Source of the DNA: Pseudomonadota bacterium
GTDB lineage: Bacteria > Pseudomonadota > Gammaproteobacteria > Burkholderiales > Rhodocyclaceae
Direction of reading: 5' to 3'
Assembly (NCBI GenBank): GCA_039797825.1
Contig: JBDKHF010000031.1
Span: 31,814 to 95,813 of the forward strand
DNA: 64,000 nt
The notes under the pieces were generated by a model that saw only the letters and a list, made by a program, of their open reading frames with translations, was not told the origin of the DNA and made no database searches. Shown piece by piece: positions 2,060-33,419 of this stretch (position 1 is its first letter; each line of letters begins with the position of its first letter). Both the position numbers and the translations under genes were made by a program.

Positions 2060-2869
2060 TCAGAGAATACGGTGAGCGAGGGCCGGCAGGCTCTCGCGGA
2101 TTTCGGCGATACGGGCATGGTCGAGGTCAGCAATGACCACACCCGGCCCTTTCATTTTGCGATCGAGGATGTCACCCCACGGATCGATAATCATACTGTT
2201 ACCGTGCGTCATGCGGCCATTTTCGTGCTGGCCGCCTTGTCCGACGGCGAGCAGGTAGCATTGGTTCTCGATGGCGCGCGCCCGCAGCAGAATTTCCCAG
2301 TGGGCGCGGCCGGTTGTGTCGGTAAAGGCGGCGGGCATAAGGATCAGATCAACCGGCGCCAAGGCGCGGAATAACTCGGGAAAGCGCAGGTCGTAGCAGA
2401 TCGACAGGGCAACCCGACCAAAAGGCGTGTCGACCGCAGCCAGTTCGTTGCCGGCTTCGATAAAAGTGGCTTCGTCGTAGGACTCATCGCCTTTCTTGAA
2501 ACCGAATAGATGAATTTTGTCGTAACGCTTGACGCAAACGCCTTGCGGGTTGAAAACCAGGCTCGAATTGCGCATTTTGTCGGCAACGGTTGCGGTCAAC
2601 GGGATAGAACCGGCAAAAATCCAGATGCCGTGGCGCTGCGCCATTTCCGCCAACCAGTCCTGAATCGGCCCGTCACCAAAGTCTTCCCGCGCCCGCACGC
2701 GATCCGCATCGGCAGCGCCAATAATCGGGAAATATTCGGGTAGTGCGACCAGTTGGGCGCCCTGCGCGACTGCGCTTTCAATCAACTGGCCAGCGGTCGC
2801 CAGATTTTCGCCAACGCGTGGGCCGGAAACCATTTGCAGGGCAGCGATTCGACAATTTTGCTTGTTCAT
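2060..2869 (-). CDS. carbon-nitrogen hydrolase family protein (nitrilase/omega-amidase-like)
   Basis: Glu-Lys-Cys catalytic triad contexts LPEYF, KIHLF and [10 protein letters not shown]. 269 aa. Overlaps the upstream yhdP-like gene by 4 nt. Confidence 0.85.
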
Positions 2870-5800
2870 TCCTTGCTTTCTTCCTTGGTTTCATCAGGCG
2901 GATTGACCTGAGCGCTCGGTCGTATCTCCTCGCTTTGCCCCGCCTTGTCGACCAAGGGCTCGCTCCAGGTGCCCGTGACGTGATAGCGATAGCTGAACAA
3001 GCGGTTAAGTGGATTCTGGATCACGCTGCTCGCCAGCAAAGTTGCTGCGCCGGCGACCGGATTGATCAGCGCCATACCGACAGCCGCGACCGCCCCCAAC
3101 TCCGGGCGCACAATAACGCGCATGTCCTGGGTTTCATTCTTGAGATCAACCTCGCCCGCCATCTCGATCTGCGCCGCCGGGCCTTTGATGCGTAACGGAT
3201 CATTTGTTCGCATCATGCCTTTTTTCACGTTGAGCTTGCCCTCGATACTGTCAAAAGCCAGTCCATCGCTGAAGACATCGCGGAAATCAAGGCTGATCCG
3301 CCGCGACAGCGACTGCAGGGAAAGCAGGCCGAGCAGTTTGCCGACCCCTGGTTCGAGCTTGTTGAATTGCCCTTTTTCAGCATTGAGCAGCAGCTTGCCG
3401 CTCAGCGTCGGATAGTGAATCGTCGTGGGTGGACCATCCCATTCCAGGCTGCCGCTCAAGCCCCCCGTGCCACGTTTGACACCGTCGCCGTAGCCCAGGC
3501 GCTCAAGCAGTTTGCCGATATCACTGGCAGCCAGATCAAAATCCAGCCGCATTTGCTGCCGCCCCTTGTTCTGCCAGACACCGTGGCTGCGCAAAACCCC
3601 ATCCGGATTTTTGATATTCAAGGTATCGAGCTGCCAGGCGCCTTTGTCGTTACGTGCCTTCAACTCCAGTTGCCCCATCTGTTTTTCGCCCAGATAAAGC
3701 TCGTCGACCGCCAGCGTCATGCTCGGCAAACTATTGATCAGCGGATTGACTGGCGCGCCAACCGCCTCGACGGTCGGACGCAAGACCAGGCGACGCAGGC
3801 GACCTTCCAACGTGCCTTCGCCGGCACTGCGCCAGACCAGATCACCGACCGCTTCGCGCATATTGACGCCAATCTGCCAGCCGCCTTCACGCGGGCGCAG
3901 CGTTAAATCCGCCTGACTGAAATCACGCCCCAGCAGGTGCAACTTGGGGGTTTTGATTGCTACTAGCGACAAGGCAAAATCACTTTGCGCGCCCCCCGGT
4001 GCAGCGTCGCCAGAAAACAAATCCTTCCACGGATCGGCATTAAAGCGTGGTGCCGAAACCATCACTGCCAGGCCTTTTTCGGGCAAGCGCAACTCGCCCT
4101 CACCAAGCGCGATCACTGTTTTTTCCGCACGCATTTCCTTGCCATCGTGACGCCGCAAGAGCAATGCCTGGGCGATTTTGTTACCGACCGTAATCTTGTA
4201 TTGCTCACGCGTGGCATCCGGCGCGCTCCGCTCAATCCGCAACGGCCAACTCAATTCCGCGGCTTTGTTGAGCGGCTCAGGCAAGCTGGCACTAATCCCG
4301 GTCAACGGCGATTCGATAACAAAATCAGCATTGCGCCCACGAATATCGATGTTGGCTGTCCATGTCGAGCTACCTGCCAGATGCTCCATCAACGGCCAGC
4401 GGAAATGTTTTTGCAGCTCAGGTGCTTTGGCCGTACCCGATGCCTGAATACCGACCTTGCCAGTTTCGCTCTTGACCACCACCTTGAGCGACCCACCGAA
4501 AACCTGGCCGACCATATCCGTCGCCACAATCGATTTCTCAGTAATCGCCAGGCGGCCACTGACGCCGGTAATCGTCGGCAGCGCCGAAACCACATCAACC
4601 TGATTATTCTGCAACTGATAATCGGCGCGCAGCCTGGCCTCATGCGTTCGCCGCAGGGGCAGATCAAGCAGCAGATCAAGCTTGCCGTTACCCTTGGCTT
4701 TCATGCTTTCGGTAAAACCATCAATCATTTTGCTAACCGGGCTTTGCTCGATAAAACGCAAAAACTCGCTGGTCGGACCACTGGCATGCCCGCGAACCCG
4801 CAACTGTTCATCCATCGACTCAAAATCCGGGATCTCAACCGTCACATCGGATACTTTGGCACCCAACATCGTGCCCTTGGCGGAATCAACTTTTACCCCG
4901 ACACCAAAGCTGAGATTGGCTTCGATGTTATCAACCATAGGCCAGCCACTGGTGTAATCGACCTTGCCTTCGCTGGCTTTGACGGTGACCAGAAACTTAC
5001 CCTTGGCCGGGTCGCGGAAGGGAAAATCAGCCAGATCGCCCTTCAGCGTCAGTCGGCCATCGTGCCCCTTGCCAGCGAGAACCCCCAGGCGGACCCAGTC
5101 ACGCGCACCGACACTGACCGAATGCGGCAAATAGCGCCAGACAATACGCGCGTCGGCACGTTTGATGTCGGCGGAAAGATCAATGATCCCCGGGCCATTG
5201 CCGGTATACAAATAAGTGCCGCTGGCACTCGCCGCCGCACCGGCGCCTTCAAATTGCAAACGCTCCAGCTTGAGCGCTAGACCGCTGTCTTGCGCCTTCC
5301 AGGAAACACGCGCCTTGAGCAGGTCAAAATCAGTCGTCGGCTCGGGGAAAATAGCGGGCAAGGAAATACTCGATTTGCCGGCATCCAATGAAATTTCCCC
5401 GGCTTTTTCATTGACATCAAGCATGCCGGCCAAGCCATTGGCGCCAGGAAAATAGCCCCCCGCCTGCATGCCAAGATTGGTAAAACTGGCCTTCAGGGCA
5501 TAGCGTTCGAGTTTTTCATCAGCCAGTTCCCAACTGGTCCGCAACTCGGCAATGCGCCCCTCGGGGTGATGCTTGACCAGCAACTGCCGGCTCTGCGCAT
5601 CCAGTGGCAAGTAGGCGGCCAGGCGACCCAGTACCGCAAGATCGAGAAAAGTAGCGCTGGCACTGCCGACATTGCGATCAAGATCAGAATGCTGCCAGGC
5701 CAGCTGAAAATCAGTCGGCGCAACCCGAATGCCATCCAGCGTCTGCAACTCAACTTTGCGCCCGATGATGACGCGCTCCTTGCCTTTATAGCTCGCTTCA

Positions 5801-6768
5801 ATCCGCCCCCGCATACTGGACAGATCCAGCTCCGGCAAATTTTTCCCGAAGCGGACGCGCAAGTCTTCAAGAGCCACATCCGCCGTCAGCTTGCCGCCAC
5901 CATCGGCCAGATCACCCCAAATCCGCAAAGCGCCGCGCCCTTGCGGGAGATGAATCGGGTAATCAACCCACTTTCGCCAGGCCGCCAGATCAGCGTAATC
6001 AAGCTCGACAAAAATCCGCCCGGCCAGCTGCTCAAGCGCTTCGCCAAGATCGCCCTTGATCTCGCCACGAATATCGATACGTGCCGCCAGACTACTCGGT
6101 GGCGCCGCAGAAAGGCCGAAACGATGGCGGCGTCCACGGTTATCGAGGCCAAACTGTAAATCCTCAAGCACCAGCGGCGGCGCTTTGCGCAGGCGATCAT
6201 CCCAGACAATCGTCGCATTGCGTACGCGAATATGTGGCTGCTCCAGCAACCACTCGGCCAGCGCCGGATCACTTTCGCCTTCGGCATCCACCCCGGCCAG
6301 CGTAATTTTTCCATTGGCGTCACGGCGCACATGCAACACCGCACCATCAAAAGCCAGCAAGGACAAGGTCGGGCGCAAACGAACCAGGCTTTGCCAGGAA
6401 AGCACACTTTCCACTTGCTGCAGCGTAAATGCTGGCGCTCCCTGTTTATCGAAAATGGTGACTTCGTCGAGCACCAGATCCGGGTTCAAGCCGCTCCAGC
6501 GCGCCGTAATTTTGCCGATTTTTACCGGTTGACCGACCGCATTGCTTGCCGCCTGCTCAATCTTGGCCTGGTAGTCGCCCACCTTGGGCAGCACCACATA
6601 ACGCAAGGCCAAGACCAGCGCAACAAACAACAACCAACCGACCAGCATGGTCCAACCCAGCACGCGCAAGCCGCGCCCAACCCCCGGTTTGGCCAGCCAC
6701 GGCCAAAGGTAATGCAAGCGGTAATAGATACCGGCACGCAGCTCGCGTTTATCCACGCGGCAAACCAC
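2866..6768 (-). CDS. yhdP: YhdP-family (AsmA-like) large envelope protein
   Basis: 1300 aa with an N-terminal TM anchor (LVGWLLFVALVLALRYVVL) followed by a long repetitive beta-rich periplasmic region. It sits in the glnE-divergent position upstream of the C-N hydrolase and tldD that I recall for betaproteobacteria. GTG start, so the start is uncertain. Confidence 0.8.
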   Translation of the reverse strand: MVCRVDKRELRAGIYYRLHYLWPWLAKPGVGRGLRVLGWTMLVGWLLFVALVLALRYVVLPKVGDYQAKIEQAASNAVGQPVKIGKITARWSGLNPDLVLDEVTIFDKQGAPAFTLQQVESVLSWQSLVRLRPTLSLLAFDGAVLHVRRDANGKITLAGVDAEGESDPALAEWLLEQPHIRVRNATIVWDDRLRKAPPLVLEDLQFGLDNRGRRHRFGLSAAPPSSLAARIDIRGEIKGDLGEALEQLAGRIFVELDYADLAAWRKWVDYPIHLPQGRGALRIWGDLADGGGKLTADVALEDLRVRFGKNLPELDLSSMRGRIEASYKGKERVIIGRKVELQTLDGIRVAPTDFQLAWQHSDLDRNVGSASATFLDLAVLGRLAAYLPLDAQSRQLLVKHHPEGRIAELRTSWELADEKLERYALKASFTNLGMQAGGYFPGANGLAGMLDVNEKAGEISLDAGKSSISLPAIFPEPTTDFDLLKARVSWKAQDSGLALKLERLQFEGAGAAASASGTYLYTGNGPGIIDLSADIKRADARIVWRYLPHSVSVGARDWVRLGVLAGKGHDGRLTLKGDLADFPFRDPAKGKFLVTVKASEGKVDYTSGWPMVDNIEANLSFGVGVKVDSAKGTMLGAKVSDVTVEIPDFESMDEQLRVRGHASGPTSEFLRFIEQSPVSKMIDGFTESMKAKGNGKLDLLLDLPLRRTHEARLRADYQLQNNQVDVVSALPTITGVSGRLAITEKSIVATDMVGQVFGGSLKVVVKSETGKVGIQASGTAKAPELQKHFRWPLMEHLAGSSTWTANIDIRGRNADFVIESPLTGISASLPEPLNKAAELSWPLRIERSAPDATREQYKITVGNKIAQALLLRRHDGKEMRAEKTVIALGEGELRLPEKGLAVMVSAPRFNADPWKDLFSGDAAPGGAQSDFALSLVAIKTPKLHLLGRDFSQADLTLRPREGGWQIGVNMREAVGDLVWRSAGEGTLEGRLRRLVLRPTVEAVGAPVNPLINSLPSMTLAVDELYLGEKQMGQLELKARNDKGAWQLDTLNIKNPDGVLRSHGVWQNKGRQQMRLDFDLAASDIGKLLERLGYGDGVKRGTGGLSGSLEWDGPPTTIHYPTLSGKLLLNAEKGQFNKLEPGVGKLLGLLSLQSLSRRISLDFRDVFSDGLAFDSIEGKLNVKKGMMRTNDPLRIKGPAAQIEMAGEVDLKNETQDMRVIVRPELGAVAAVGMALINPVAGAATLLASSVIQNPLNRLFSYRYHVTGTWSEPLVDKAGQSEEIRPSAQVNPPDETKEESKE

Positions 6769-6860: not shown

Positions 6861-9575
6861 ATGCAACACACAATCGACCCACGCTGGCAAGCAGCGCTGG
6901 ACCACAGCACCTACCTGAACAACCTGCTCAAATGCCGCCCCGCACTGATTCCCGAGCTGGCCGCCACCTGGCATCAGGCACTCTCGGAAGACATGCTGCT
7001 CAACCCGCTCAAGCAGGCGTTTGCCGATGACGATGCGGTCAAGTCGGCATTGCGCTGCCTGCGTCATCGCGCGATGGCCCATATGGCCCTGCGCGACCTG
7101 TGCGGACTGGCACCACTGACCGAAATTGTCGAAAGCATGACCATGCTGGCCGATGTGACGACCAATTTCGTGCTCGATTATTACCATCGTCAGCTCGTCG
7201 CCAACTATGGCGAACCGCTCGACAAGGCGGGCCAGGCGCAGCGCCTGTTGATCATCGGCATGGGCAAGCTCGGAGGTCGCGAACTGAATGTTTCCTCGGA
7301 CGTTGATTACATTTTCGTTTATCCCGAAGAAGGCGACACCAACGGTGCGCGGAGCATCGAAAATTACGATTTCTTCACCCGACTCGGCAAAAGAATTATC
7401 AGTGCGCTTGGCGAGTTGACCGCAGATGGCCAGGTTTTCCGTGTCGATATGCGCTTGCGCCCGAATGGCGACTCCGGCCCACTGGTTTGCTCGCTTGATG
7501 CGCTGGAAAACTATTTCATCACCCAGGGCCGCGAGTGGGAACGCTACGCCTGGATCAAATCACGAGTCATGAATTCTGGCCCCAACGCCGAAGGCGCGGC
7601 GCTCGGTGAATGGATGCTGGCGCTGCGTCGAATTTCGCGCCCCTTTGTCTTCCGTAAATACCTCGACTTTGGCGCGATCAATGCGATGCGCGACCTACAC
7701 GCGCAAATTCGCCGTGAAGTAGCACGCAAGGACAAGGTTGACCACATCAAGCTCGGCCCCGGCGGCATTCGTGAAATTGAATTTATCGCCCAGGTCTTTC
7801 AACTAATCCGGGGTGGGCGCGACTCGGCCCTGCAAATCCGCCCGACGCTATCAGTGCTCAAACTCCTCGCCGAGCGCAAGCTGATCCCGCCCGAAACCGA
7901 AAGCGAGTTGCGCGAAGCGTATGTTTTCCTGCGTCGTGTCGAACACCGCCTGCAATATGTGGAAGACAAACAAACCCACATGCTGCCCGAAGCCGAAGAT
8001 GCCCGCGCCAGCCTGGCATGCAGTATGGATTACGCTGACTGGCCGGCACTGCTGGTCGTCCTCAACCAGCATCGCGAAAAAGTCAGCCGCCATTTTGGCG
8101 AGATATTCTCCGATCCTGAGGCGGGCGAACACCCACTAACCGGCGTCTGGCTGGGCCAGCACGACGAAGATACCACCCTTGAAACGCTCGGCAATCTGGG
8201 CTATCGCCAGCCGCATGAGGCGATCACCCGTCTTGCCGAACTACGTAGCTCAAACCGCTATTTGCAATTACCGACGACCAATCGCTCGCGTCTTGATGCC
8301 GTCGGCCCACGTCTGATCGAAGCCGCTGGCGCGACCAGCAACCCCGACACCACCTTTGCCCGCGGCTTGAATTTCCTCGAAGGGATAAGCCGCCGTGGCG
8401 CTTATCTTGCCTTGTTGCAGCAATACCCGATGGCGCTGCGGCGCGTCGCCGACATGATGTGCGCCTCGTTCTGGGCGGCGGAATATCTCAATCGTCACCC
8501 GCTGTTGCTCGACGAATTGCTCGACCCACGCCTTTACGAAATTGCCACCAACTGGGCCGGCTTCCGTGAAAACTTGCGCCAGACACTGGCCGAACACGCC
8601 GGTGATACCGAGCGCGAAATGGACATTCTGCGCGAAACCCATCACGCCCAGGTTTTCCGCTTGCTGGCGCAGGATCTGGCCGGCCTGCAAACCATCGAAC
8701 ACCTCTCCGACCACCTCACCGAACTGGCCGATACCCTCGTTCAGGAAACCCTGCCGCTTTGTTGGGAAACAATCAAAAAACGCCATTGTGCGACGCCCAA
8801 ATTCGCTGTCATCGGCTACGGAAAAATGGGCGGCAAGGAGCTTGGTTACGCGTCTGATCTCGACATGGTTTACCTGTTCGATGACGACGACCAGGATGCC
8901 GAGGAAAACTACAATCGCCTCGGCCAGCGCCTCAACACCTGGCTATCGAGCCAGACTTCTGCCGGAATTCTGTTTGAAACCGACCTTCGCCTACGCCCGA
9001 ATGGTGATTCCGGCCTGCTCGCCGTCTCGGTCGATGCTTTCCGCGATTACCAGTTGAAACACGCCTGGGTCTGGGAGCATCAGGCGCTCAGCCGCGCCCG
9101 TTTCTGCGCTGGCGATCCGGCGGTTGGCGAGCGCTTTGAGGCAATCCGCTGCGAAATTCTGCGCCAACAGCGCGATCTGGCCAAACTACGCGAAGAAGTT
9201 ATCGCCATGCGGCGCAAAATGCTCGATGCCCACGCCTCGCACAGCGAAGATGAATTCGACCTTAAACAAGACCCCGGCGGGATTATTGATGTCGAGTTCA
9301 TCGTCCAATACCTGGTGCTTGGCTACGCCCACCAGCATGGCGAATTGACCGGCAACCTCGGCAATATCGCGCTGCTGCGCATCGCTGGCGAACTTGGTCT
9401 GATCCCGCCAGAGCAAGCCGCCGCAGTCGGCAATGCCTACCGCGAATACCGCCGCCTGCAACACGCCAAGCGATTGAATGCCAATCCACAAGCGCGCAAT
9501 GATCGCGAAAGTCTGGAAAAACATATTGTTGCGGTCAACCAGCTTTGGCTGGCGATTTTTGGTGAGGGCAATTAG
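6861..9575 (+). CDS. glnE: bifunctional glutamine synthetase adenylyltransferase/adenylyl-removing enzyme
   Basis: 904 aa with two duplicated nucleotidyltransferase halves (GMGKLGGRELNVSSDVDYIFVY and GYGKMGGKELGYASDLDMVYLF). Confidence 0.93.
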   Translation: MQHTIDPRWQAALDHSTYLNNLLKCRPALIPELAATWHQALSEDMLLNPLKQAFADDDAVKSALRCLRHRAMAHMALRDLCGLAPLTEIVESMTMLADVTTNFVLDYYHRQLVANYGEPLDKAGQAQRLLIIGMGKLGGRELNVSSDVDYIFVYPEEGDTNGARSIENYDFFTRLGKRIISALGELTADGQVFRVDMRLRPNGDSGPLVCSLDALENYFITQGREWERYAWIKSRVMNSGPNAEGAALGEWMLALRRISRPFVFRKYLDFGAINAMRDLHAQIRREVARKDKVDHIKLGPGGIREIEFIAQVFQLIRGGRDSALQIRPTLSVLKLLAERKLIPPETESELREAYVFLRRVEHRLQYVEDKQTHMLPEAEDARASLACSMDYADWPALLVVLNQHREKVSRHFGEIFSDPEAGEHPLTGVWLGQHDEDTTLETLGNLGYRQPHEAITRLAELRSSNRYLQLPTTNRSRLDAVGPRLIEAAGATSNPDTTFARGLNFLEGISRRGAYLALLQQYPMALRRVADMMCASFWAAEYLNRHPLLLDELLDPRLYEIATNWAGFRENLRQTLAEHAGDTEREMDILRETHHAQVFRLLAQDLAGLQTIEHLSDHLTELADTLVQETLPLCWETIKKRHCATPKFAVIGYGKMGGKELGYASDLDMVYLFDDDDQDAEENYNRLGQRLNTWLSSQTSAGILFETDLRLRPNGDSGLLAVSVDAFRDYQLKHAWVWEHQALSRARFCAGDPAVGERFEAIRCEILRQQRDLAKLREEVIAMRRKMLDAHASHSEDEFDLKQDPGGIIDVEFIVQYLVLGYAHQHGELTGNLGNIALLRIAGELGLIPPEQAAAVGNAYREYRRLQHAKRLNANPQARNDRESLEKHIVAVNQLWLAIFGEGN

Positions 9576-28690: not shown

Positions 28691-29968
28691 ATGCAGCACC
28701 TGAACCCCGAACAGAAGCGTAGACGCTGGTTTGCGCTCGGCATTGCCGCCACCGCCTTTGTCCTTTCATTTTTCCAGCGCTTCGCGCCGGCTGGCATCGC
28801 GCAGGATCTGGCGGTTTCCTTCCAGACCTCCGCTGCCTCGCTGGGCGTTCTGGCAGCCACCTACTTTTATGTTTATACGGTGATGCAGATTCCCACCGGC
28901 ATTCTCGCCGACACGCTGGGGCCGCGCCGGATTTTGATGATCGGCGGGATTATCGGTGGCCTTGGCAGCTTTCTATTTGGTTTTGCACCGACTCTGGAAT
29001 GGGCGCTGGCCGGGCGCACGCTGGTTGGCTTGGGCGTTTCAGTCACTTTCATCGCCATGCTCAAACTGATTGCCGTGTGGTTTGAAGAAAATCGTTTCGC
29101 CACGCTGGTTGGCGTCTGCATGTTGATCGGCAATCTCGGTTCAGTCCTCGCCGGTGCACCACTTTCGGCACTGGCTCAGGCGAGCGGCTGGCGCGGTGTG
29201 TTCATTGCCGTCGGCGGCATTTCGCTGGTGCTCAGCCTGGCCTGCTGGATCATCGTCCGTGACCGTCCGGACAGCGCCAGCAATACGCCCGCCCCAAAAT
29301 TTGACCGTACCGTCGTGCTAACCGGCTTGCTCGCCGTCATCCGCAACCGTGCCACCTGGCCGGCAGTGTTGGTCAACACGGGCATGACCGGCGCCTTTTT
29401 CACCTTCGCCGGCCTCTGGGCAACACCTTATTTGATGCAGGTACATGGCCTAACCCGTTCAATTGCAGCTACCCATCTTTCCTTGTGGTTTGGCGGTTTT
29501 GCGATTGGTTGTTTCTTCATTGGCACCCTGTCCGACCGCATCGGGCGTCGTAAACCGGTGCTGATTGTGACCTCGCACCTTTATGTCGCGATCTGGCTGA
29601 TTTTGCTCTCCGGCGTCGCGATGCCCTTGTGGCTGTCCTATTCGCTTTTTGGCCTGATCGGGCTGTCGACCGCCGGCTGCAGCCTGACCTGGGCCTGTGC
29701 CAAGGAAGTTAACCCACCTTTGCTTTCCGGCATGTCAACCAGCGTCGCCAATATGGGAGGCTTTCTCGCGGCGGCACTCTTTCAGCCGCTCTTCGGCTGG
29801 GTCATTGATCTGGGCTGGAAAGGCGAAATGCTGGCCGGTGCGCGCTTCTACGATATTGAGTCGTGGCGCGGCGGGCTGATTGTTGTCACGCTATGCGCGA
29901 CGATGGCCGCCGTGGGCAGTTGGCGCATCGTCGAGACGGGCTGCCGGAATATCTGGAAGCCAGCATGA
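28691..29968 (+). CDS. MFS transporter
   Basis: 425 aa, about 12 TM, with the MFS loop motif GILADTLGPRR. Confidence 0.85.
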   Translation: MQHLNPEQKRRRWFALGIAATAFVLSFFQRFAPAGIAQDLAVSFQTSAASLGVLAATYFYVYTVMQIPTGILADTLGPRRILMIGGIIGGLGSFLFGFAPTLEWALAGRTLVGLGVSVTFIAMLKLIAVWFEENRFATLVGVCMLIGNLGSVLAGAPLSALAQASGWRGVFIAVGGISLVLSLACWIIVRDRPDSASNTPAPKFDRTVVLTGLLAVIRNRATWPAVLVNTGMTGAFFTFAGLWATPYLMQVHGLTRSIAATHLSLWFGGFAIGCFFIGTLSDRIGRRKPVLIVTSHLYVAIWLILLSGVAMPLWLSYSLFGLIGLSTAGCSLTWACAKEVNPPLLSGMSTSVANMGGFLAAALFQPLFGWVIDLGWKGEMLAGARFYDIESWRGGLIVVTLCATMAAVGSWRIVETGCRNIWKPA

Positions 29969-30190
29969 CCCACCAACCGGATGACACTTGCCATGCCGCA
30001 AGATATATCATCCAATCCAAGCGACATATATCTACTCGATCCGCAAGCTATAATCCTGCGAATGGTTTTGGTCTCGAACCCGATCCAGCAGCTTCGGCGC
30101 AGCACCGACACAAAGAGAAGAATTGAATTACCACACAGGCGCCACTCTTAACGTTGGACCCAATGCATTACTCACTCACCGGAGAATCAA

Positions 30191-30457
30191 ATGTCACCTG
30201 ATGAAAAACTTGCACACTCGCTGAAGGTTAAATTTGGCACAGCGCCGGGGGAGCCGTCTGATGCGCAACTGTTACAGATCAAAAACACCATTCGACAAAT
30301 CCAGTCAAGCGGAAAAGCACCAATTGAACAAGATTGGCTCAAAGCTGTAACCATGCACTGCCCCAGCACGGGCCAATACAGATACGCCGGAATTGACAAT
30401 TCCGATTTGAACACGCTACTTGCATTGGCTATCCAAGTAGCAAACAAAAGGGGGTAA
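30191..30457 (+). CDS. hypothetical small protein (paralog 1 of tandem pair)
   Basis: 88 aa with a GGAGA SD 6 nt upstream. Shares P(S/T)..QL.QI, CP(S/N)T and the C-terminal GIDNSDL.TL.A.AIQVAN..G motif with the next ORF. No family recognised. Confidence 0.6.
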   Translation: MSPDEKLAHSLKVKFGTAPGEPSDAQLLQIKNTIRQIQSSGKAPIEQDWLKAVTMHCPSTGQYRYAGIDNSDLNTLLALAIQVANKRG

Positions 30458-30460
30458 CTG

Positions 30461-30715
30461 ATGGAACAACTATCAAAACTCAAGAGCTCTCTTGAGGATA
30501 CGTGTTCAATTGTCGCGTGGAATCCCACATCGTCGCAGTTACAGCAGATTGCAAAGCTATTGGTTAAATCCAACACAATCGAAAAAAGCGATGTCGATAG
30601 CATCGTTGCCGGCGTCTGTCCAAACACGAAATTTATCGCAATGGAGGGTATCGATAACTCGGACCTCAGAACGTTAATTGCAATAGCTATTCAGGTTGCT
30701 AACGCAAAAGGCTAA
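30461..30715 (+). CDS. hypothetical small protein (paralog 2 of tandem pair)
   Basis: 84 aa with an AGGGGG SD. Starts 3 nt after the paralog 1 stop. Same conserved motifs, encoded largely by different codons. Confidence 0.6.
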   Translation: MEQLSKLKSSLEDTCSIVAWNPTSSQLQQIAKLLVKSNTIEKSDVDSIVAGVCPNTKFIAMEGIDNSDLRTLIAIAIQVANAKG

Positions 30716-30718
30716 ACA

Positions 30719-31516
30719 ATGCATCGAACAAATGAGCAAGACGTAGTAAACGCGAAAGCAAAACTGGCGAATCTCAAAACAGAGTATTTGAAGGCTGTTG
30801 GACAGTACATTTCCCACGACAAGCTGGATCAACAAAGTAGCTTAAATGCAGTTCTTAATTGTCAGCAGGCTGGAGCAAGCTACTTTAATTTTGTCGAGGA
30901 ATTTGTTGGCAATAGTGATCTTCTTGGCGCGCATGAAAGTGCTTTGTGGGCGCAAGGGTTTGCAGAGGACTGCGCAGAAATCTTGAAATCCATGCCGGCG
31001 CATTTCCAGCTTTTGTCTGCGGGTTTCGCGGGTCTGAATGGCCCCACCATCGATCAGATACGTCCCGGGAGCACAGCATTTGCCAACATGCAACGGATGG
31101 TGATGAAGTATTTGAATCCCACAGAGAGCAATACGATCAAGTCCTCATTTGAACAATCGGGCCTACCGATTTACGGATTTACCAATGAAGCGAGAGAGTT
31201 CATGAGCACGAAGCTCCAAACCATTTTGTCGTTCACCTTTGGTGTTGTCTTTGTAATCGTGCTTCTTGTCATCGCTTTCGTTCAGCCTCAGCCGAGCAGT
31301 TTTCAATACTCAGTTTTCAGAACAGTTTTAGCACTGGCCGGAGCGGGAGCTGTAGCTGTGTTTCCCGGATTTATCGAAGTTAAGCTTGGAAACTGGCTCA
31401 GGGCGGGTGGCGCATTGGCAGTATTTGTAGTGCTGTACTTCTGGAATCCCGCATTGCTTGCAAGTGATCCAGACGCATCCAAAAAACCTAACCCGGCAGT
31501 CCACGCTGCGCAATAA
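30719..31516 (+). CDS. hypothetical membrane protein (soluble N-terminal domain of about 165 aa plus three C-terminal TM helices)
   Basis: 265 aa, starts 3 nt after the previous stop. Hydrophobic segments ILSFTFGVVFVIVLLVIAFV, VFRTVLALAGAGAVAVFPGFI and LRAGGALAVFVVLYFWNPALL. No family recognised. Confidence 0.6.
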   Translation: MHRTNEQDVVNAKAKLANLKTEYLKAVGQYISHDKLDQQSSLNAVLNCQQAGASYFNFVEEFVGNSDLLGAHESALWAQGFAEDCAEILKSMPAHFQLLSAGFAGLNGPTIDQIRPGSTAFANMQRMVMKYLNPTESNTIKSSFEQSGLPIYGFTNEAREFMSTKLQTILSFTFGVVFVIVLLVIAFVQPQPSSFQYSVFRTVLALAGAGAVAVFPGFIEVKLGNWLRAGGALAVFVVLYFWNPALLASDPDASKKPNPAVHAAQ

Positions 31517-31557
31517 AGCCACGTAGCACCGGTTCCTTCTACGTTACCCAACTAAAA

Positions 31558-31920
31558 ATGAGACCGAATATGTATCGTGGCCAGAAAAATCTCGAAGAAT
31601 TCCACCCCGCAAAAAAATTAAATCACAAAATTTTCAACAATTTATTTGAGGCTTTGAAATTGAAGCACCCAGAAGATTTGACGCCAAGGTATCTGTCAAA
31701 TCTTTCTGCGTCGCAACTGCTTTCCGTAGAGTTAACATTGGTCGCAATTTCGGAGGGGCAGGAATGGCTTGTCGAACATGGGACATCTCTAAAACGCAAG
31801 CCTCCGCAAACACCTGAAGAAATGCAGGCTGTAAAGCGGGCCATTGGGATTCTGGATGCTTATCAATTTGATGTTTCTATTATTCGGCAGCAACTCGCGT
31901 ACTTAAAAAATGATGGCTAA
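31558..31920 (+). CDS. hypothetical protein
   Basis: 120 aa ORF on the same strand in the most AT-rich stretch of the cassette. No obvious SD (alternative ATG at 31570). No family recognised. Confidence 0.45.
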   Translation: MRPNMYRGQKNLEEFHPAKKLNHKIFNNLFEALKLKHPEDLTPRYLSNLSASQLLSVELTLVAISEGQEWLVEHGTSLKRKPPQTPEEMQAVKRAIGILDAYQFDVSIIRQQLAYLKNDG

Positions 31921-32554
31921 CCCTGCGGCCAACCGGACCTTGAACGTTATGCCTCCTCGTGAGCCCAGCGTGAACGAGACGTTTCCTGAGATGCCCACTC
32001 TTGGGGGTGAGCATTATGTTCACCGCATTCCCAAATGGCTAGTCGCTCTCTTCCGGGTGTCTTTCGTGATCGGAGCTATTGCTCTGGCAGCCATGTCGTT
32101 ACGCGACTGGAGCGAGATGCCGCTGGGCTTTCGTGGACTGGTTTGCATTCTTGTGCCTGCATTTGCGTTCTTTGCCTTCCGCACACCACGAGCAATCAAG
32201 TTTCTCGCCGATGATCGCGGAGTGTTCTTTCCATGCAATGAGCCTCTTGTTGCCGCCACGGGCCGAGAAGGGGCAAATAGATGGCTGTTAGTGCCGTGGA
32301 GCAACATATCAAACGTACGGGTCGCCACGGAAATCGACCACGAAGGTAGTTCAGCTAAGTGTGTCGCCTTCGATGTGAAAATCTCGCCTGACGAGCAAGC
32401 GGAGTTCTTTCAGCACGTTGGCTACCCGAGCGACCGAACACGTAATGGCAGTAATTGCCTGCCTGTCGCCTATAGTGATTTCCCACCAGTTCCCAAAACG
32501 ACTGTGGCGCGCTTGCAGAGCTTGAGCCGGCAGTGCCATGAGCGCGAAGAATAA
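31910..32554 (+). CDS. hypothetical membrane protein (two N-terminal TM helices plus soluble C-terminal domain)
   Basis: 214 aa, overlaps the previous ORF by 11 nt. TM segments WLVALFRVSFVIGAIALAAM and GLVCILVPAFAFFAF. The 2TM-plus-soluble-domain layout resembles bacterial PH-domain membrane proteins, by topology only. Confidence 0.55.
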   Translation: MMANPAANRTLNVMPPREPSVNETFPEMPTLGGEHYVHRIPKWLVALFRVSFVIGAIALAAMSLRDWSEMPLGFRGLVCILVPAFAFFAFRTPRAIKFLADDRGVFFPCNEPLVAATGREGANRWLLVPWSNISNVRVATEIDHEGSSAKCVAFDVKISPDEQAEFFQHVGYPSDRTRNGSNCLPVAYSDFPPVPKTTVARLQSLSRQCHEREE

Positions 32555-32639
32555 CGTTCCAGGGTACCGGCAAGCTGCGCTTGTTCGCCCGCACCAAATT
32601 AACGGGAATGTCGCATCAGGCAAGCAGCCTGACCCGCTT

Positions 32640-33419
32640 TCACTTTTCGACAAAAGCCCGTTCGATCACGTAGTCACCCAATTCGCCGGTGTGATGGCGC
32701 GCCACCTTGAAGCCGCGTGCATCTAGCAAGGCTGCCGTATCCTTCAGCATTTCCGGGCTGCCGCAGATCATTGCGCGATCATGCTCAGGATCGAGTGGCA
32801 ATTGGCCGATGTCGGCAAAGAGCTTGCCGGAGTCGATCAGATCAGTCAGCCGGCCTTCGTTGCGGAAAGCCTCACGGGTCACTGTCGGGTAATAGATCAA
32901 CTGTTTGCGCGCCAATTCGCCGAAGTACTCGTGGCTGGCCAGTTCGTGCTCGATGTAGTCGTGATAAGCCAGTTCGTTGGTCCAGCGCACACCGTGAATG
33001 AGGATGATTTTCTCGAAGCGCTCGTAGGTTTCCGGGTCGTGGATCAGGCTCATGAACGGCGCCAGGCCGGTGCCGGTGGCAAAGAGGAAAAGACGTTTAC
33101 CCGGTTTCAGGTCATGCAGCACCAGCGTACCGGTCGGCTTTTTGCTGACGATGATCGGGTCACCCGGCTGCAAATGCTGCAGCCGTGAAGTCAGCGGGCC
33201 ATTCGGCACCTTGATGCTGAAAAATTCCAGATGCTCCTCATGGTTGGCGCTGGCGATACTGTAAGCGCGGGTCAGTGGACGGCCATCGACTTCCAACCCG
33301 ATCATCACGAACTGGCCATTGATGAAGCGCAAACCGGCGTCGCGCGTGGTACGGAATGAAAATAGCGTGTCATTCCAGTGATTAACCGAGAGAACGGTTT
33401 CGGTGCTGAGCTTGCTCAT
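32640..33419 (-). CDS. fpr: ferredoxin-NADP+ reductase
   Basis: 259 aa from ATG 33419 (MSKLSTETV...). FAD motif RAYSIAS and NADP motif LFLFATGTGLAPF. Confidence 0.9.
   Translation of the reverse strand: MSKLSTETVLSVNHWNDTLFSFRTTRDAGLRFINGQFVMIGLEVDGRPLTRAYSIASANHEEHLEFFSIKVPNGPLTSRLQHLQPGDPIIVSKKPTGTLVLHDLKPGKRLFLFATGTGLAPFMSLIHDPETYERFEKIILIHGVRWTNELAYHDYIEHELASHEYFGELARKQLIYYPTVTREAFRNEGRLTDLIDSGKLFADIGQLPLDPEHDRAMICGSPEMLKDTAALLDARGFKVARHHTGELGDYVIERAFVEK

Follow-up and report, generated by a model that had tools for sequence, protein, structure and literature searches.

A mobile three-gene module, a candidate anti-phage system with a putative membrane effector, lies beside two passenger genes in a foreign insertion of a Rhodocyclaceae bacterium

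The window analysed here is a stretch of 64,000 nucleotides (positions 31,814 to 95,813 of contig JBDKHF010000031.1, assembly GCA_039797825.1) from a Pseudomonadota bacterium of the Rhodocyclaceae. Within it, an AT-rich segment of 2.66 kb is located between two convergent genes, an MFS transporter gene (28691–29968) and fpr, which is on the minus strand and ends at 32640. The segment holds five open reading frames (ORFs) on the plus strand: g1 (30191–30457, 88 aa), g2 (30461–30715, 84 aa), g3 (30719–31516, 265 aa), g4 (31558–31920, 120 aa) and g5 (31910–32554, 214 aa). Successive spacings are 3, 3, 41 and −11 nt, and the coordinates, strand and gaps given in an earlier reading made from the letters alone (the sequence-only reading) were confirmed for all five. 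That reading had taken the five genes for a single, compositionally foreign cassette of anti-phage or toxin–immunity type. We find instead that g1, g2 and g3 form a conserved unit, whereas g4 and g5 are unrelated passengers that are not part of it. The unit travels among bacteria, plasmids and P2-like phages beside known anti-phage systems and is for this reason probably an undescribed phage-defence module.

The flanking MFS protein was used to scan metagenome contigs, giving 80 related loci, and MFS, fpr, the LysR gene and g1–g5 were placed in each of them by tblastn. In the closest relative (L073; identities of 97% for MFS, 96% for fpr and 96% for LysR) the junction is empty, the MFS and fpr matches ending 14 nt apart. 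The MFS–fpr gap is 11–20 nt in 20 of the 80 loci in all and 133 nt in one more. When the window is aligned to the empty site of L073, homology ends at the MFS stop codon and restarts at the fpr stop codon; it follows that the entire block of 2.66 kb is accessory, g5 as much as the rest. The same block is present in a near-identical 23-kb metagenome contig (L003). Five related loci carry other inserts, of 0.9–2.4 kb, at the MFS–fpr junction, and g1–g5 are found in none of these five. Because some relatives carry different cargo there, the junction is a recurrent insertion site. Its occupancy, nil in the closest relatives and variable in others, bears out the earlier view that the segment is foreign; the inserted 2.66 kb is a foreign mosaic.

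An imperfect 21-nt direct repeat (ATCTGG-AAGCCAGCATGACCC and ATCAGGCAAG-CAGCCTGACCC) is found at both insertion edges, which were located from the alignment to the empty site and a local alignment of the edges. The left copy, ATCTGGAAGCCAGCATGACCC (29951–29971), overlaps the 3′ end of the MFS gene and its stop codon, and the right copy, ATCAGGCAAGCAGCCTGACCC (32615–32635), lies just before the fpr stop codon. The repeat hints at a target duplication. An alignment as good is obtained for about 1.3% of random window pairs, which makes the repeat only modestly better than chance, and we have therefore not taken it to prove site-specific integration. The inserted segment itself is free of mobility genes, as had been noted from the letters. 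Upstream of g1, a foreign leader on the plus strand (29972–30190, ~49% GC), not present in the empty-site relatives, presumably carries the promoter of the module; a scan of the insertion for sigma-70 consensus promoters and terminators gave nothing useful on the plus strand.

The composition of the segment was measured in sliding 300-nt windows. The GC fraction is 0.42–0.51 over 30.05–32.0 kb, as against 0.53–0.65 in the flanks, so that the dip reported earlier is real, if milder than the hand count had made it. The GC fraction at third codon positions (GC3) is 0.48–0.49 in g1–g3, lowest in g4 at 0.42 and 0.58 in g5, compared with 0.65–0.72 in the MFS, cytochrome c, fpr and LysR genes. From these values g1–g4 are clearly foreign and g5 is intermediate; with an overall GC of 0.55, it falls outside the dip. 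Shine–Dalgarno-like sequences and stop/start coupling are confined within the insertion to g1, g2 and g3 and are absent from g4 and g5. The Shine–Dalgarno sequence of g1 is GGAG, 7 nt upstream, and that of g2, GGGGG, overlaps the g1 stop codon.

Relatives of g3 were collected at E ≤ 1e-3 from a collection of 5.8 billion proteins. The 229 found are all unnamed or 'hypothetical', none has a Pfam domain, and at 90% identity the family has no fewer than 229 protein clusters. When one genome per species was scanned with a profile, 65 loci came out, 17 of them with a full-length match to g3. These 17 come from Parazoarcus, Methylobacter, Methylococcales, an Actinomycetes metagenome-assembled genome (MAG), an Acidobacteriaceae MAG, Burkholderiaceae, Paraburkholderia and eight Pseudomonas species, and in every one of them the g3 homologue is directly preceded by one to three ORFs of the g1/g2 type. 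A P2-like phage and a viral contig show the same arrangement. The conserved unit thus consists of one to three helical paralogues of ~85 aa upstream of g3, minimally two genes. It is AT-rich relative to the host in nearly every locus, and it occurs on eight plasmids, in several bacterial phyla and in P2-like phages. In Pseudomonas inefficax (L019) two complete modules are arranged in tandem ~1.2 kb apart (2741–4238 and 5459–6705), and in the second of these the two small proteins are fused in one 175-aa ORF.

Neither g4 nor g5 was found at any of the ~30 other places with a g3 relative, the sole exception being the near-identical contig L003. Because they are missing from all the other g3 loci examined, the five genes are not one system; co-occurrence outside the source genome, expected of the whole set, is a property of the g1–g3 core and not of the five together. 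A single five-gene system, in which g3 and g5 would both be membrane effectors, has in its favour the shared strand, the tight packing and the common insertion. The data essentially exclude it: besides the absence of g4 and g5 from every other g1–g3 locus examined, the relatives of g5 stand alone elsewhere, g4 is apparently truncated, and composition and translation signals differ between g1–g3 and g4/g5. Tight same-strand packing inside one insertion does not, then, make a system, and what had been read as one cassette is a three-gene module with two unrelated passengers.

Each of the two passengers has its own, unrelated family and contexts. Relatives of g4 were sought among 1.8 billion representative proteins and 43 were found, mostly of ~175 aa, of which g4 covers only the C-terminal ~105 residues. 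The N-termini of these ~175-aa proteins resemble helix-turn-helix (HTH) domains of the LuxR/sigma-70 region-4 type, with a weak HTH match in one long form. Similarity of the window to two of the long forms starts 15 nt upstream of the g4 ATG (31543–31920), on account of which g4 appears to be a 5′-truncated remnant of a longer, HTH-bearing family; short forms of 116–119 aa exist elsewhere. The product of g5 has two N-terminal transmembrane (TM) helices by hydropathy, as predicted earlier. It belongs to a family of 2-TM proteins with 29 relatives, in Methylococcaceae, Rhodoferax and Sideroxydans, which stand alone beside integrases, transposases or a group II intron (L069–L072). The proposal that g5 is a second membrane-spanning effector of the cassette has accordingly been given up: it is an independent passenger with its own family and contexts. 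In L003 the g5 gene call begins at the equivalent of window position 31949, which removes the 11-nt overlap with g4.

The genomic company of the g1–g3 unit is what points to defence. In the P2-like phage OU784750 a pair of genes coding for 85 and 233 aa, 29–30% identical to g2 and g3 and with the 3-nt spacing kept, is flanked by the tail-fibre assembly gene G and the sheath gene gpFI and runs on the strand opposite to the tail genes; canonical P2 has its T5-exclusion gene fun(Z) at this position. In a 36-kb viral contig from IMG/VR (L162) a module of 84 + 84 + 252 aa lies between a GpA-type nicking/replication gene and the portal, terminase and scaffold genes. The GpA–GpQ interval is the main defence hotspot of P2, and a second hotspot is found within the tail genes (PMC13586616; PMC9122126). 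The module thus occupies defence hotspots of P2-like phages, at the fun(Z) slot in OU784750 and at the GpA–portal slot in L162.

In bacterial genomes the unit is found repeatedly with known defence genes, in hosts that are unrelated to one another. It is flanked by a Gabija pair and a Shedu SduA_C gene in Vibrio proteolyticus. In several Pseudomonas species it lies between gop-beta-cII (Beta_protein + P4 cII) and Gabija, with AbiJ nearby, in islands whose outer flanks vary among contigs. In Microbulbifer it is followed by SMODS and DUF3800 genes, and in Marinomonas it belongs to a same-strand cassette array after an integrase, with AbiJ as a neighbour and a ParE/RHH pair not far off. Hachiman adjoins the g3 homologue of a P. 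aeruginosa plasmid. Annotation of 94 neighbouring ORFs from 15 genomes with PADLOC and Pfam also gave HEPN/Toprim, AbiTii, KAP NTPase, M78 peptidases, patatin and transposases. In Pseudomonas floridensis an immediate neighbour of the module is a 583-aa patatin-like phospholipase (L015, 3253–5004). The Marinomonas array (Marinomonas sp. TI.3.20, L171, 5330–16000) is a long series of short genes with gaps of ~100–130 nt and is preceded by a tyrosine recombinase and an IS91-type gene; its cassettes include AbiJ, DUF2971 and ParE/RHH, and in layout it resembles the cassette array of a chromosomal integron. The Vibrio island was considered as a Gamma-Mobile-Trio island and this was rejected: its VPA1267-family protein was confirmed, but the putative trio has no NCBIfam match.

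One alternative reading is an addiction module. Were g3 a membrane toxin and the small proteins its antitoxins, the unit would stabilise mobile elements and any anti-phage effect would be secondary. Several observations are in keeping with a toxin–antitoxin pair of this kind: small genes precede a larger one with translational coupling, the module is AT-rich and highly mobile, it is carried on plasmids, including one of 6.6 kb where it lies beside a GNAT/DUF1778 pair, and ParE toxins are adjacent elsewhere. We nevertheless think it unlikely, since the module proteins have no match to known toxin–antitoxin families in Pfam or NCBIfam, arrays of two or three paralogous 'antitoxins' would be unusual, and in the P. 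aeruginosa plasmid the g3 homologue is immediately preceded by an IS30 element, no small gene being annotated in between, which is hard to square with an unneutralised toxin unless the gene is inactive. This alternative is only partly distinct from defence, because toxin–antitoxin and abortive-infection functions overlap. The P. aeruginosa plasmid (L164, 7370–12121) has a class 1 integron, and the neighbouring Hachiman system is itself split by IS30. The 6.6-kb plasmid, NZ_CP089056.1 of Acinetobacter ursingii (L163, 649–1811), codes for a divergent g3-like protein of 214 aa (phrog_5814, E = 4e-29), and the pair that it forms adjoins the GNAT/DUF1778 toxin–antitoxin pair. Its upstream partner is an unrelated 171-aa protein outside the ~85-aa family, with a partial match to phrog_2825 'polymerase', which indicates that the membrane protein can switch partners.

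None of g1–g5 has a significant match in Pfam or NCBIfam, and none matches any PADLOC family at E ≤ 1, so that the products do lie outside characterised families, as had been proposed. PADLOC 2.0 reportedly covers the Rousset and Vassallo systems. The PHROGs families matched are of unknown function (g3 to phrog_5814, E = 2e-54; g2 to phrog_31842, E = 1e-5). Sequence and profile searches of the PDB with the module proteins were empty, and Foldseek searches of the AlphaFold models of g2 and g3 against PDB and BFVD gave no significant match, the best, at E = 0.19, being to generic helical bundles. A search of the literature with the PHROG identifiers, EAD11 and defence systems combining TM and small proteins found no description of the g1–g3 family.

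The membrane protein g3 is made up of two parts. From alignments and an AlphaFold2 model built with a 48-sequence alignment, aa 1–163 (30719–31207, plus strand) are predicted to form a cytoplasmic, all-helical bundle. The mean pLDDT of the model is 79.5, with values >90 over most of residues 10–160. The N-terminal ~160 residues are strongly conserved, having 20–28 invariant columns and the consensus YFNYxEEFVGNSDLLGAHxSxLWAQGFAEDCAEIL ... ANMQRM. Invariant or near-invariant positions are N57, E60, G64, S66, G70, H72, W77, E83, D84, C85, H95, P116 and M124-Q125-R126. The polar residues among these (N57, E60, S66, H72, E83, D84, C85, H95, Q125 and R126) could, to judge from their conservation, form a metal- or ligand-binding site.

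The second part of g3, aa 164–244 (31208–31450, plus strand), is a Gly/Ala-rich 3-TM module and a putative membrane effector. Hydropathy and the AlphaFold model agree with the three C-terminal TM helices proposed from the letters; they are placed at 164–188, 194–214 and 230–241, with lower model confidence, and the loop charges are compatible with an N-in/C-out topology. TM2 and TM3 are the Gly/Ala-rich segments LALAGAGAVAVFPGF and RAGGALAVFVVLYF, a pattern that is frequent in oligomerising, channel-forming helices. Some homologues have an extra C-terminal extension of ~160 aa. A match of g3 to Csx27 (NCBIfam, E = 0.12, TM region only) was taken as TM composition noise. When 48 family members were compared with Pfam at E ≤ 1 the result was scattered TM noise, with no SLATT match; as neither SH2 nor any other Pfam domain is matched in these 48, there is no support for calling the Vibrio homologue P0084 an 'SH2 domain-containing protein', as its source does.

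The 3-TM region has a wider distribution than the rest of the protein. Residues ~160–250 of g3 alone are matched at 35–70% identity in ~45 further loci, with hosts among Deinococcales, Planctomycetes, Acidobacteria, Verrucomicrobia, Chloroflexi, cyanobacteria, Myxococcota and others (L021–L068, the match falling at about 6001–6300 in most). The module keeps its invariant Gly, Ala, Pro and aromatic positions and is N-terminal, C-terminal or stand-alone in these proteins, the fusion partners being EAD11, CarboxypepD_reg, HEAT, TPR, DUF4019 and SH3_3. The single EAD11 example is L053, with the architecture EAD11–3TM–CarboxypepD_reg. EADs have been proposed to act as adaptors that, by homotypic interaction, link the NTPase cores of conflict systems with domains of effector or signalling function (PMC7159879), and TM proteins in defence systems are generally regarded as suicide effectors (PMC9122126). 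As far as domain architecture can tell, the EAD11 fusion would suit the 3-TM module as an effector or transducer.

A different kind of protection would be superinfection exclusion without cell death, in which g3 as an inner-membrane protein would block DNA entry or an envelope step in the manner of Sie or Imm, with the small proteins as chaperones or regulators. The module does sit in P2-like lysogenic-conversion slots, including that of the T5-excluding fun(Z), and the C-terminus of g3, a predicted inner-membrane protein, would face the periplasm and is prolonged by ~160 aa in some homologues. Most occurrences, however, are in chromosomal defence islands or on plasmids rather than in prophages; the most conserved part of g3 is a large cytoplasmic domain, served by one to three cytoplasmic partners of its own, which would be needless for a simple entry block; and the EAD11 fusion points to an effector or signalling role. 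We assign this explanation a low probability.

The small proteins form a family of ~85 aa with 168 relatives, marked as a whole by the motifs W-P-T/S..QL..I and CP...G-x-D-N-S-D-L-x-x-L-L-A-L-A, with an invariant D-N-S-D motif and a near-invariant Cys-Pro, and divided into at least three subtypes. That g1 and g2 are tandem paralogues, as claimed earlier, is confirmed by 37% identity at E = 9e-15. The 84-aa helical protein g2 (30461–30715, plus strand) represents the g2-type (W-P-T/S..QL..IA ... CP ... EG-[IV]-DNSDL), the usual direct upstream partner of g3 in bacteria and in the P2-like phage, and is the sole copy in those of the loci checked that have a single small gene (P2-like phage, Parazoarcus, L005 and L020). 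The 88-aa helical protein g1 (30191–30457, plus strand) represents the g1-type (FGT.P.EPT ... CPS.G ... G-x-DNSDLNTLLALA), an accessory paralogue in most but not all loci, which comes first where it is present. The AlphaFold model of g2 is a four-helix unit (pLDDT 78), for which Foldseek found no structural relatives in the PDB. Since 'NSDL' occurs near residue 65 in both the small proteins and g3, we considered whether the small proteins are paralogues of the g3 N-terminus; this was rejected, the hhalign probability being <1%. A short motif common to the two is possible.

On the evidence of context and architecture, and by analogy with RexAB-type and other TM-effector systems, a mechanism may be proposed. 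The small cytoplasmic proteins would bind the cytoplasmic domain of g3, either holding it inactive or sensing a phage cue, and different small paralogues might broaden the range of cues. Infection would then release the 3-TM modules of g3 or trigger their oligomerisation, and these would permeabilise or depolarise the inner membrane, so that phage production stops.

With moderate confidence, then, we regard g1–g3 as a mobile anti-phage module of abortive-infection type lying in a 2.66-kb foreign mosaic together with the unrelated passengers g4 and g5; the insertion, the make-up of the module, its mobility and the genes that surround it are observed directly, and the defence role, the division of labour between the proteins and the action at the membrane are what we infer from context. 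The anti-phage role suggested from the letters is in this form the best-supported reading for g1–g3, and does not extend to the five-gene set. A number of points weigh against it. The module proteins have no detectable homology or fold similarity to characterised defence proteins in Pfam, NCBIfam, PADLOC, PDB or BFVD, and the roles given to the small proteins are guesses. The tally of defence neighbours is a raw listing and is not background-corrected. In the window the module stands alone between housekeeping genes, its neighbours in Aeromonas and Burkholderia are uninformative, and the P2-type pair is rare, being found in 1 of 5426 complete E. coli genomes. Furthermore, the 3-TM fusions to the presumably extracytoplasmic CarboxypepD_reg, SH3_3, TPR and HEAT domains would fit a conserved anchor or transducer, in place of a pore, equally well.

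Some of these points would also suit an accessory role outside conflict, such as envelope-stress sensing, a transporter or channel, or a membrane-anchored scaffold, hitch-hiking in variable regions. There is no recognisable effector chemistry, the 3-TM module is fused to varied and probably extracytoplasmic domains, conservation of the g3 N-domain is higher than is usual in defence genes, and some neighbourhoods are uninformative. The repeated, independent placement of the module in defence islands and in both P2 hotspots, in unrelated hosts, makes such a role very improbable. In the other direction, the defence reading can be carried further. On this extended form g1–g3 would be an unrecognised anti-phage family in which arrays of paralogous small sensors plug into a cytoplasmic domain that gates a Gly/Ala-rich 3-TM pore, the 3-TM module being a widely shared effector domain of conflict systems in many phyla, with varied N- and C-terminal partners including EAD11. 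We offer this tentatively and consider it possible rather than probable.

The defence module proposed for g1–g3 may be compared with systems already described. RexAB-type logic is the closest likeness to the mechanism set out above. RexA is described as sensing infection and triggering the RexB ion channel, which collapses the membrane potential; in Sucellos, a RexAB-like integron system, SclB is a predicted TM pore and both genes are required (bioRxiv 10.1101/2024.07.02.601686). Like g1–g3, lambda RexAB and Sucellos (SclA/SclB) are borne by mobile genetic elements or (pro)phages and combine soluble components with a polytopic inner-membrane protein. The sequences differ, hhalign giving 0.2% for g3 with RexB and 1.9% for the small family with RexA, and so do the proportions: RexA has 279 aa, as against ~85-aa partners in arrays of one to three paralogues here, and RexB has 144 aa, as against the three TM helices and large conserved cytoplasmic domain of g3. 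Sucellos was compared with g1–g3 through its published description. Of the GAPS systems of Vibrio islands the validated GAPS1/2/4/6 were compared, and these are unlike g1–g3 in architecture.

The cargo of P2 (Fun(Z), Old, Tin and the hotspot systems of Rousset et al. 2022) shares with the module the fun(Z) slot between G and FI and the GpA–portal (old/tin) slot, as well as being AT-rich and on the strand opposite to the tail genes (PMC9122126; PMC13586616); with Fun(Z) itself the genomic position alone is shared (hhalign probability 0.2%). The TM suicide effectors (SLATT 2TM; CBASS, Pycsar and retron) resemble g3 in having a short multi-TM module found in varied domain combinations and conflict-type loci, EAD11 fusion included. 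SLATT, however, has a 2-TM core, whereas g3 has three TM helices, not two or four, and 0 of 48 family members match it at E ≤ 1; signalling systems of the CBASS/Pycsar type differ in that the module has no enzyme generating a nucleotide signal. With type II toxin–antitoxin pairs the module has in common that it is compact, mobile and coupled, with small genes upstream, on plasmids and beside other pairs; it differs in its multiple small paralogues and in that the putative toxin would be a membrane protein with a large conserved regulatory domain. A holin/lysis cassette is a poor match, as g3 has 265 aa (holin criterion <150 aa) and the module of the P2-like phages is placed between tail genes, or between the replication and the portal genes, and not in a lysis module; no match to lysin families was found for genes in or beside the window insertion.

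We therefore put g1–g3 forward as a new and widespread candidate defence family, consisting of one or more soluble partners and a putative membrane effector. If they protect against phage, they are a compact (~1.3 kb), widespread family unrelated to known systems, with a reusable 3-TM effector module whose recognition could help in annotating dozens of other membrane proteins that are orphans in conflict loci. The small proteins, as partners in sets of one to three paralogues, would be a tractable model for the diversification of sensing specificity.

The other inserts at the MFS–fpr junction, at 8276–9173 in L080, 2580–4992 in L094, 8276–10081 in L101 and L102, and 8267–10432 in L107, are of host-like GC. 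They encode one to three small secreted proteins of ~95–133 aa, with signal-peptide-like N-termini and an 'AADANDYIQ' motif, and a secreted protein of 320–350 aa with the HExxH-like motif YEFAHELCH.

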